This document shows, in pieces, positions 6,691 through 23,639 of a stretch of 23,639 bases of DNA. The translations under genes and the position numbers were made by a program. The notes beneath the pieces are model-generated. The model had not been told where the DNA came from. It made no database searches and saw nothing but the letters and a program-made list of their open reading frames with translations. Source of the DNA: a virus (Duplodnaviria > Heunggongvirae > Uroviricota > Caudoviricetes); IMG/VR virus record IMGVR_UViG_2874945390_000005, one strand, 5' to 3'. Position 1 is the first letter of the stretch, and the number at the start of each line of letters is the position of its first letter.

Positions 6691-7573
<883 letters not shown>

Positions 7574-7790
7574 GTTCACAGATAAAACACTCTCCAGGAA
7601 ACCCGGGGCGGTTCAGGGAGACCGTCATCCCCGGTTCAAAGCTCTGCTGAACAATTGCGATCTTTTCCTGTGTGGTACGCCGTCTGCGTTTCTCCGGCCC
7701 TAAGACATCAATCATCTGTTCTCCAATGACTAGTCTAAAAACTAGTATTAAGACTATCACTTATTTAAGTGATACTGGTTGTCTGGAGAT

Positions 7791-20158: not shown

Positions 20159-20379
20159 CAAATATGGTTTCCACTCTCAAAGACAAAGACAATCGCAGCA
20201 AAAACGTAAGCCAGAATCATGCAGATGATTATGGTTACAGCCAGAACGATTACCCTCCTTTCTGATTACTGAAAATAAGGCTCCCATTAATGCCAGCGCC
20301 TCTGTATGGTGCGGATGACCCGCGCAACTGCTCCGGTAGCTCCAAGGCGGAGGTGCTGGAAAATATCAAAATGAAGTGG

Positions 20380-21528
<1,149 letters not shown>

Positions 21529-21548
<20 letters not shown>

Positions 21549-22194
21549 TGGAGCACCTGTGTTGTTCTGAGGTGAGCATATCACCTCTGTTCAGGTGGCC
21601 AAATTCAGTGTGCCACTTTACATTATCAAGTTGCTTGTTACGTGATGCCAAGATGTTCTGTTTGGCAATTTCACAGAGTTCTTCATCGCTCTTATCGGTC
21701 ATGTAAATAAACTGACCAGCACCTCTTGAAGCTTTAACCATCTTCACAATCCGGTATCCATCAGGAAGATTATTAATCACGTCTGGGATATTCTCAGGAA
21801 AAGTACCAAAACCATCATTATCTGTATATGTGAAGTAAACATACGGCTTTTGTGACAATTCATCCTGAATCTCAAATTCTGATGGCTCAATAGCTGATTG
21901 CATCAAGGTAACTTTGCTGTAAGCGTCATCAAGTTTAAGACGCTGTGCTTTTAGCAGTGGGTAATATTCACGCTCAAGATTAAATAATGCTTCACTCTTG
22001 CAAATATCAGGCATCTCTTGAGGTTCAGGAGTCACAAAGATGATTTCCTTTGGTGACATCTTTAGCTCTTGCTCAAGCTTAATTCTTTCATTGTGTTCTT
22101 TACGCTGAATAGTGATAGCTGGATGTTCAGTCTGTGGTGACCAGTCACCGAAGCTATCAATCTTTCTGCCGTTAATAAATAAATCGTTTGTCAT
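21529..22194 (-). CDS. Unknown protein in a low-GC block, 3' end replaced by the IS911 terminus; native part about 21622..22194
   Basis: ATG at 22194-22192 with GAGGAAA upstream ([44 protein letters not shown]...). The last 30 or so codons are read from the IS911 inverted repeat. Confidence 0.45.
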
Positions 22195-22216
22195 TACTAT
22201 TTCCTCTTCTAAGTAA

Positions 22217-22306
22217 TATTCAGTTTTTAAAAAGCACACCTGACAGCCTACGAACTTAGAAGAGACTTAAAAGCGTTTGCCAAGTGCGCTTTTTAAAAAC
22301 TGAATA
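22217..22306. repeat. Perfect 19-bp inverted repeat (tattcagtttttaaaaagc / gctttttaaaaactgaata) separated by 52 bp
   Basis: Arms at 22217-22235 and 22288-22306, read directly from sequence; located 23-112 nt upstream of the 22194 start. Confidence 0.7.
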
Positions 22307-22657
22307 GCCCTAGATAATTTCTTATAAAGGGCCATTCATAAGGTGAAGAAATTAAAAGAACATCTAAAGGATTCAATAACGAATGAACAAAGACTTTTTG
22401 AGATAGCCTATCTAGTGTGGGCTAAATATGCCATGACGAAAAGCATTGCACCTTTCAGAATGACTATCCCTAGATGTAGATGGAATTGTTGAAAGAAATA
22501 AGAGAGAATTGCTCTCCCATACTTAAAATTATGGCATACCTAAGGTTATTTGTCAACAGCTTTTTAACAGATTGGTAACATTAATTTTTATTTACTGTGT
22601 TACCTACCCAGCAACCAACAAATAAGCCAAGCAACGTCCAAGCAATTATTAAACCCA

Positions 22658-22981
22658 TTAGTGAACCCTCACAGAATCCGTAACCAAAATATTGTCAGCG
22701 TACAAAATTGCTATAGCCGCCTTGAGATATTTTTCAGGGCTAACGCTGTATCGGTTAGTTTCCTCAATAATAAGACGCTTCATGTTTGAGTCGCTAACAG
22801 GAAACATAAAACGTGGGTCACCAGTTTCAATTTCCTGAATAAAATCTTCAATTGCTTCTGAGTTCTCAGCCATTAGTTTTAACAGCCTGTCAAAGTCAAT
22901 GCTAATACCTGCATCAGTGAAATGCTGAATCATCAGAGCGGTGTTGGCATCAATCATAATTTGCATTGAGTAATTGTTCAT
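22658..22981 (-). CDS. Unknown protein, 107 aa, low GC
   Basis: ATG at 22981-22979 preceded by AAGGAG (MNNYSMQIMIDANTALMIQHFTDAGISIDFDRLLKLMAENSEAIEDF...). Confidence 0.5.
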   Translation of the reverse strand: MNNYSMQIMIDANTALMIQHFTDAGISIDFDRLLKLMAENSEAIEDFIQEIETGDPRFMFPVSDSNMKRLIIEETNRYSVSPEKYLKAAIAILYADNILVTDSVRVH

Positions 22982-23139
22982 TTTTAAAATCTCCTTTTTT
23001 TTACCAGACCTCCTCAATCGCTCTGTAACGAGCTAAACAGTCTTTTTCAGGGGTAGCCTGTACAGTGGTATTACCCACCCTAAAATAAGATAGTTTTTTG
23101 CGTTAGAATGCGATTGAGAGCGTCTGAGAAGCTGTTTTT

Positions 23140-23427
23140 CTAATTTCTCTTAAAGTCTCGGACTTGCATAAGATTTTTGGGTCTGGTATCGGCTCTGTTA
23201 CCATTTCGATGGATAATTTGCTTATTGGATTGATAGCCATGATAAAGGAACCAGACAACATATTTCACGTAGAAAGTATATCGGCCTATATTAAATGTTT
23301 TGTTGCCGTAGTCGTCGGTATTTATCGTGACTGACTCTCCATCAGACCAGCACAGGGAATCACTGGATTCATCATAGATAAGGTGTTCTGTAAAATATCG
23401 TCTAACATCTTCATGCCAAGGTTTCAT
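23140..23427 (-). CDS. Small HNH-type endonuclease (HNH_3-like motif IIHRNGNRADTRPKNL)
   Basis: 95-aa ORF; motif H-x-N-G-N...N-L near the C-terminus; its start overlaps the upstream ORF stop (ATGA). Confidence 0.55.
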   Translation of the reverse strand: MKPWHEDVRRYFTEHLIYDESSDSLCWSDGESVTINTDDYGNKTFNIGRYTFYVKYVVWFLYHGYQSNKQIIHRNGNRADTRPKNLMQVRDFKRN

Positions 23428-23639
23428 AAAACCTCCTCACCCCAATAACCTAATTCAATCTTGTGACGCTCAAACCATTCTGGTTTAACTGCTGTTTTCA
23501 GTGCTTCATTTGGGCCAATGGCTTTAATGAAAATATCTTTTGAGTTATGGATGTCACCGAATCCGTTTCCTTCAATCAGGAGGTCGGAGATGTAGCGAAT
23601 CATTTTATCCGTGTGGTATTCAAAGGTAACGCATAGCAT
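23424..23639 (-). CDS. Unknown protein, possibly 5'-truncated at the window edge
   Basis: ORF reaches the last base of the window; translationally coupled to the HNH gene. Confidence 0.4.
   Translation of the reverse strand: MLCVTFEYHTDKMIRYISDLLIEGNGFGDIHNSKDIFIKAIGPNEALKTAVKPEWFERHKIELGYWGEEVL

Follow-up and report, generated by a model that had tools for sequence, protein, structure and literature searches.

Among the described elements that exploit or obstruct phages, the PLE of Vibrio, whose partner is the phage ICP1, is by its logic the closest analogue of the element discussed here; the two were compared by description, and they share the class of their recombinase. PLE is a small island (~18 kb) with a large serine recombinase and a content made mostly of ORFans, it is paired with a virulent rather than a temperate myophage, and it has nuclease and small membrane-peptide genes. 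PLE also has a known RepA and origin and a capsid-remodelling protein, and it is not known to carry helper-derived tail genes. The DNA analysed here, IMG/VR record IMGVR_UViG_2874945390_000005 of a tailed virus (Caudoviricetes), is 23,639 nucleotides long and is called the window throughout; its right end is a low-GC block that a first, sequence-only reading had taken for foreign accessory DNA, rightly, as it is the centre of a mobile island. The block comes from the middle part of an island copy that has been truncated; in the interpretation that we favour, with a confidence a little above even, the island is a satellite-like parasite of Felixounaviruses or an interference element against them.

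Like PLE, the island is small (11.5 kb), has a large serine recombinase, mostly ORFans, a nuclease and small membrane-peptide genes, and points to a virulent myophage as its partner; unlike PLE, it occurs in other hosts, no replication module was found in it, and its hallmark is a helper-derived pair of tail genes, which encode a tape measure and a distal tail (Dit) protein. P4-like satellites, PICIs, cf-PICIs and PICMIs resemble it in that they too are islands in the chromosome, have less than a full set of virion genes, and either need a phage or interfere with one. The P4-like and PICI families are characterised by tyrosine integrases, AlpA/Stl-type regulators, primase-replicases and hijack genes directed at the capsid or at packaging; no island ORF (open reading frame) matched a tyrosine integrase, AlpA/Stl, a primase-replicase, Sid/Psu/Delta or a capsid or packaging gene in Pfam, PHROGs or NCBIfam. 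Structural homologues of the helper do exist in those families (the capsid genes of cf-PICIs, Ccm of SaPIbov5), while those of the island belong to the tail and not to the head. As for the Tai systems (PMC11364771), they share with the island the likely point of attack, phage tail assembly; unlike the island, the Tai systems, by description, do not consist of tail-protein homologues on a recombinase island of their own. Finally, the island differs from the tail module of a Felixounavirus in having no sheath, tube, chaperones, hub, wedges or fibres.

The intact island and its excision

In ~160 of 5,426 complete Escherichia coli genomes the block is present over 80% or more of its length, with 86-91% identity, inside a discrete island of 11.5-12 kb whose hosts are Escherichia, Shigella and Salmonella. 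No description of it was found in the literature, including a search by RefSeq accession, and the 11.5-kb island family is apparently undescribed. Its gene order is invariant: the large serine recombinase is followed by the Dit-like protein (PF21821), the tape measure (PF20155; phrog_4036, 1.8e-81), p71b and p236, then by p25, p107, a variable slot, p92 and a variable arm; the arm holds p184 and p62 or other genes, and then either a Dam-type methylase and an invertase or an HNH_3-AP2 gene. Diversity at the level of alleles is found in p107, p236 and the tape measure.

Regarding the recombinase, intact relatives carry it at one end, with Resolvase, Recombinase and zinc ribbon domains, and it comes in two types named after the insertion site, wrbA (547 aa) and yecE (507 aa). 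The two are ~34% identical and accompany the same cargo, which argues against a randomly decayed prophage. Comparison with the empty site of E. coli K-12 places the first insertion within wrbA, 15-21 nt from its 5' end, where the junctions overlap by 7 bp, and a second group of copies is inserted at yecE; intact E. coli copies with the same architecture exist at both sites, and Salmonella enterica has a copy of ~11.5 kb at wrbA that is free of insertion sequences (IS). Among the island ORFs, Pfam, PHROGs and NCBIfam revealed none for capsid, portal, terminase, lysis or replication, so that the island, at 11.5 kb in total and without head, packaging, lysis and lysogeny-control modules, is not a functional prophage; like a satellite, it lacks a complete set of virion and replication genes. 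Ten island proteins gave no match to known defence systems in PADLOC-DB v2, and the defence cargo that the sequence-only reading had thought conceivable finds no support among these systems.

Evidence for mobility came from a scan of metagenomes with the yecE-type recombinase, which returned 51 loci, ~30 of them integrated and flanked by the two halves of yecE. One contig (L047, 11,473 bp) is circularly permuted, with the right end of the island joined to its left end; the contig ends abut within ~4 nt, and the final bases are Nextera adapter. The three junctions read host/TGATTTT/left end for attL, right end/TGATTTT/host for attR and right end/TGATTTT/left end for attP, the latter (in L047) with inverted-repeat arms around the 7-bp core; they are mutually consistent, therefore the island family excises precisely, and a sample can contain it mainly as the excised circle or as a head-to-tail concatemer. 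The IMG/VR loci are all integrated, with no circular form among them. Two further contigs from one project, L073 (~4307) and L074 (2480-2590), join the right end and TGATTTT to the middle of the recombinase (residue ~232); this is a permuted deletion derivative without the recombinase N-terminus and with no intact integrase.

Relationship with Felix O1-like phages

Felix O1-like phages (Ounavirinae) are classic typing phages, and both biocontrol and phage therapy make wide use of them against Salmonella and E. coli. The Dit-like protein of the island has 303 matches in the phage collection, apparently all in Ounavirinae, 204 of them at 80-90% identity; it is 82% identical at the amino acid level in 260 Ounavirinae genomes, and the nucleotide identity reaches 90%. 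In phage VpaE1 the Dit homologue (ORF066) directly follows the tape measure gene (ORF065), which is the order of the island too. The tape measure of the island (693-725 aa, against 742 aa in the phage) is 27-30% identical to that of the phage over the full-length alignment, with values of 72-80% in the first 40 residues, 50-72% in a central patch and 10-30% in the middle; the C-terminal tip, LLSSSYPEEE, is identical to that of the phage in locus L001, and identity at the nucleotide level extends over the ends of the tape measure gene and across ORF066. Conserved termini around a diverged remainder are the pattern expected if the assembly interfaces had been retained. Judged by these alignments, the tape measure and the Dit of the island derive from virulent Felix O1-like myophages.

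Other properties link the island to the same subfamily, namely its GC content (0.38-0.40, against 0.389 in the phage and 0.50 in the host), its host range and a non-coding element. Homologues of p107 form >3,000 protein clusters and occur in E. coli, Shigella, E. fergusonii and Salmonella (UniRef assigns the exact window protein to Shigella), a range that coincides with that of the Felix O1-like phages. The non-coding element, specific to the Ounavirinae, starts with a short stem that covaries and whose loop, ATTTTTAACGTGGCTA, is conserved; CCACCCATACC and 12-16 NNACC pentamers come next; it is found in 107 Ounavirinae genomes, with three copies in one intergenic region of VpaE1 (59283-59680; L019 9283-9680), and some islands have one unit (L001 17107-17178, L012 1770-1832, L014 5908-5968). 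The element may represent an origin, an array bound by a protein or an RNA.

Taken together, the homology of the two tail proteins, the GC content, the non-coding motif and the host range point to Ounavirinae as the putative helper, and a mechanism can be proposed. On infection, the tape measure and the Dit of the island would enter phage tail assembly via the conserved interfaces, and the outcome would be either particles that serve the island or poisoned phage tails. The window genes would form an island-specific control and effector module, in which p92 and p107 may act as small DNA-binding regulators, p236 may join the tail module through its coiled coil, and p25 may sit in the membrane; p71 and the 95-residue HNH protein (HNH95) would be a nuclease pair that an island can have or lack. 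A bolder version, to which we give somewhat less than even credence, is drawn by analogy with PLE: the island would represent a new family, found in Enterobacteriaceae, of satellites of virulent phages, and would be a functional counterpart of PLE that hijacks the Felix O1-like tail and not the capsid, its own tape measure and baseplate-hub adaptor docking via their conserved termini, and its fast-evolving ORFans (p107, p236 and the p71-HNH slot) being the interface of the arms race. If true, the island would add a new factor to those that determine phage resistance or gene transfer by phages, and the notion of a virulent phage's satellite would reach beyond Vibrio to Enterobacteriaceae, with the tail in place of the capsid as the part that is hijacked. 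The theme of phage conflict raised by the sequence-only reading is thus probably right, with the difference that it enters through the Felix O1-like tail genes and not through the nuclease at the junction.

Several points weigh against this interpretation. The permuted contig has a coverage of only ~6x and the type of its sample is not identified, and excised circles arise for any integrative element. The non-coding motif of the phages is absent from many island copies, including the genome of the window; the island shows nothing recognisable as a replication initiator, an origin or a packaging signal, and an iteron-type origin proposed for its 13-nt array GGTTAAGAAGGTC was discarded because the array is a variable repeat, with 0-4 copies between islands. 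Nothing, experimental or in silico, speaks for induction by Felix-type phages or for packaging into their particles. Finally, the fold search with p236 gave generic coiled-coil matches only and the model of p107 is of low confidence, so that we infer, rather than observe, the roles of the four window genes.

The facts on Dit and tape measure homology also serve as grounds for a pure defence island, which would move by its recombinase together with generic transduction or conjugation, use the two tail proteins as dominant-negative decoys that abort Felix-type tails, and employ the window genes for regulation or as an additional nuclease. In favour of this view, no packaging or replication functions were detected among the island ORFs, interference with tail assembly is a known strategy (PMC11364771), and a strong sigma-70 promoter with a terminator-like hairpin stands as a gate before the tail module. 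Nevertheless, we consider this explanation rather unlikely, given that no protein matched PADLOC, that a free circle or concatemer dominated one metagenome contig, and that some copies carry the non-coding motif of the phages; the exchange with phages at the DNA level implies intimate co-replication. Quite improbable, in turn, is an inert relic, that is a decayed mosaic prophage fragment with a leftover recombinase and two tail genes, whose window ORFs have no current role towards phages: the window copy is clearly decayed, many copies have IS insertions and the ORFans have no assignable function, yet the same gene order is kept with two 34%-identical recombinases, at two sites and in three genera, an IS-free copy of 11.5 kb exists, excision is precise, the ORFs evolve at dN/dS (ratio of nonsynonymous to synonymous substitution rates) values of 0.06-0.25, and p236, p107 and other small proteins occur in no full-size phage among 50,697 records.

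A still smaller share of our confidence goes to a self-contained HNH cassette for defence or anti-defence, or to p71 and HNH95 as a free-standing homing endonuclease, parked at the junction. The HNH_3 domain of HNH95 has an intact H-N-N motif, the presence of p71-HNH is polymorphic, and the synonymous divergence (dS) of the pair is low, ~0.1 against ~0.6 for p107 and p25 across element copies; the near-identical, low-divergence tract, however, takes in p92 and the spacer as well as p71-HNH, hence it is not a clean homing cassette. Moreover, the 95-aa protein has no DNA-binding domain, a Salmonella variant lacks the catalytic His, the genes always lie within a larger operon, and PADLOC gave no match. 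As for p236 being a transposase and the block the cargo of an IS911-linked transposon, this view has the RefSeq name of many homologues on its side and is otherwise close to impossible: no transposase model of Pfam or NCBIfam matches, the predicted fold is a coiled coil with a small alpha/beta domain, and intact elements have no IS at this position; family scans and IS-free copies effectively refute it.

The window copy and its genes

The features of the window copy are collected in Table 1. The composition profile agrees with the sharp GC drop that the sequence-only reading had placed at the IS911 boundary: values of 0.45-0.56 in the prophage and IS911 give way to 0.36-0.40 from ~21500 to the window end, and positions 21621-23639 average 0.379, against 0.488 for positions 1-20370 and 0.50 for the flanking K-12 DNA. 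All block ORFs are on the minus strand in the ORF list, as had been said of four leftward genes, with the addition of a fifth, p25, which had been overlooked. Of the strong ribosome binding sites attributed to the four genes, a Shine-Dalgarno sequence is visible for p236' (the truncated p236), p107 and HNH95, and that of p71 falls outside the window. Likewise, the 71-aa ORF had been called partial and is complete, as the window ends on its ATG and its annotated homologues have 71 aa too. Across element copies, all five block ORFs are under purifying selection (dN/dS 0.06-0.25), which indicates that they are real genes and not chance ORFs.

Table 1. Coordinates of IS911, genes and leader elements in the right part of the window
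Feature	Position	Strand	Remarks
IS911	20371..21620	-	1250 bp; orfA 21584->21246, orfB 21219->20380
p236' (truncated)	22197->21529	-	native codons 1-193 = 22197->21619, then 29 IS911-derived codons
Structured leader with promoter	22200-22556	-	leader ~330 nt, between p25 and p236
Long hairpin	22217..22306	-	29-nt arms, 32-nt loop; directly 5' of p236 ribosome binding site
Terminator-like hairpin	22520->22498	-	directly downstream of the sigma-70 promoter
Sigma-70 promoter	22556->22528	-	near consensus; TTGACA-17-CATAAT with TG
p25	22658->22581	-	25-aa hydrophobic peptide MGLIIAWTLLGLFVGCWVGNTVNKN, read straight off the sequence
p107	22981->22658	-	107-aa ORFan
Spacer between HNH95 and p107	22982..23139	-	94-97% conserved among copies
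HNH95	23427->23140	-	95 aa, HNH_3
p71	23639->23424	-	71-aa ORFan, complete

IS911 is recognised by its length of ~1250 bp, by orfA and orfB in -1 frames and by its terminal inverted repeats, and its 34-bp end is 100% identical to that of IS911 of phage Sf6. A 3-bp target-site duplication was looked for at its flanks and is absent (AAA versus CAT), therefore this copy joins two unrelated DNAs; the rearrangement junction suspected at first is confirmed. To its left, up to 20219, where the match ends, the sequence is that of the early region of a Stx-type lambdoid prophage. In the IS911-mediated rearrangement the island lost its recombinase, Dit, tape measure and p71b genes together with the C-terminal part of p236, and what was left became joined to the lambdoid prophage; with no recombinase gene of its own, the window copy is a truncated, immobile, dead remnant of an excision-competent island. 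The weight formerly given to a nuclease beside a junction is accordingly misplaced, as IS911 merely cut a larger element and the vicinity is incidental. Regarding the right tip of IS911 (21619-21620), it is TA where TG is canonical; alternatively, the junction lies inside an AAGT microhomology with p236, and under either view this end may be transposition-defective.

Through the exact p107 protein, the window was identified as the exact reverse complement of part of CP026836.1, which allowed the rightward extension that had been proposed. To the right of the window this genome has p92, p184, a divergent 62-aa membrane ORF, a Dam-type methylase and a Hin/Gin-type invertase; beyond the invertase comes the chromosomal ymdF-rut region, and the element ends at the wrbA-ymdF site. 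This copy thus marks wrbA as an insertion site common to the island and to the lambdoid prophage.

The truncated gene at the junction had been described as an ORF of roughly 190 aa whose 3' end is replaced by IS911, and this is accurate: residues 1-193 of a 236-aa protein are native. In intact elements p236 is predicted to combine a coiled coil with a small alpha/beta domain, and its gene lies two genes upstream of the tape measure; the loss of the conserved C-terminal 43 residues probably leaves p236' non-functional. It has no match in Pfam, PHROGs, NCBIfam, PADLOC or PDB profiles (the first impression that the non-HNH proteins are unrecognisable holds against all of these), only 18 relatives were found among 1.84 billion representatives, and neither p236 nor p107 has a homologue among the 50,697 sequenced phage genomes; the block is therefore not made of ordinary genes of a known phage, an outcome that would have spoken against its accessory nature. 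In the absence of any family or phage match, p236 is neither a tube protein nor a transposase. Its allele classes are strongly divergent (~90%, 61% and 27% identity) with the same architecture. PGAP calls its homologues 'transposase' in many genomes (e.g. WP_264455149.1), which is probably a propagated mis-annotation.

Upstream of p236, the sigma-70 promoter is almost invariant in 9 element copies, and the terminator-like hairpin keeps its pairing via GC<->AU double changes at 3 pairs. RNA folding indicates a strongly folded leader (z = -7.1), and the leader of the L002 type has an equivalent long hairpin of different sequence. Rfam gave only spurious miRNA-precursor matches on the long hairpin, and the intact island and the region of the phage motif gave none. 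From the sequence, this arrangement suggests that expression of the p236-tape measure-Dit module is gated by the leader.

The ATG of p25 overlaps the stop codon of p107 (TAATG), an instance of translational coupling; p25 is 84-100% conserved, with a dN/dS of 0.13 across copies, and copies of the L002/L012 type have a different short ORF at its position. p107 is present in every element copy and diverges fast (31-100% identity); its predicted secondary structure has two beta-alpha-alpha units, and its model has a pLDDT of 52, too low for a fold search. This weakly suggests a tandem ribbon-helix-helix DNA binder. By eye, p92 has the same pattern, with a sub-threshold match to DndE, and it may be a small ribbon-helix-helix DNA binder on equally slight grounds.

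As for HNH95, the HNH_3-like motif noted at the outset is substantiated by Pfam: the protein matches HNH_3 (PF13392) with 34.3 bits, over a gathering cutoff of 24.8 (E=1.8e-8), keeps the H..N..N motif (IIHRNGN...KNL) and also matches phage HNH PHROGs. In this it resembles the small HNH proteins of phages, both HNH_3 homing endonucleases and packaging proteins of the HK97 gp74 type; unlike them, it has no AP2 domain and does not lie beside a terminase. It consists of the HNH_3 domain only, with neither AP2 nor another DNA-binding domain, so that the pairing of domains that defines a homing endonuclease is missing, and the HNH_3-AP2 gene of some islands is a separate gene. HNH95 has no close relative in the phage collection, and a scan of species representatives found it in E. 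albertii only. The stop of p71 overlaps its start (ATGA), and the two are partners in the variable slot, whose content in the window copy they form. Other islands have there a 128/141-aa protein with a weak helix-turn-helix-like match at its C-terminus, or, along with p76 and a p71-like ORF, a divergent HNH that is 41% identical and has Phe in the place of the catalytic His. An HNH is present in just 7 of the ~25 metagenome copies that span the slot, and it is thus not the core of the unit. In the small HNH of Salmonella (L022 9116-9394) the motif reads IIFRDGN, with Phe for the first catalytic His; this protein may be inactive and structural.

Concerning the other small proteins, nine of them were concatenated and compared with phages, and one weak match was obtained, between p184 and an unannotated region of an Aeromonas phage. 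In the Salmonella island L022, upstream of p184, GGTTAAGAAGGTC is repeated 3.8 times perfectly (7339-7388) and is accompanied by a 95-nt repeat (7451-7628); in the Shigella locus L004 (8072-9061), p184 has grown to 329 aa through ~45-50 tandem NTY (9-nt) repeats. Both wrbA and yecE are sites of lambdoid and Stx phages too, and they are occupied in tandem: here the island stands directly next to the lambdoid prophage, and in L017 (7264-9005) the yecE copy has a gene for a tyrosine integrase as its neighbour. Finally, restriction-modification and helicase genes, along with additional IS copies, are present in the prophage of the window (1-20219), and locus L003 has a HicAB pair just past the left end of the window.

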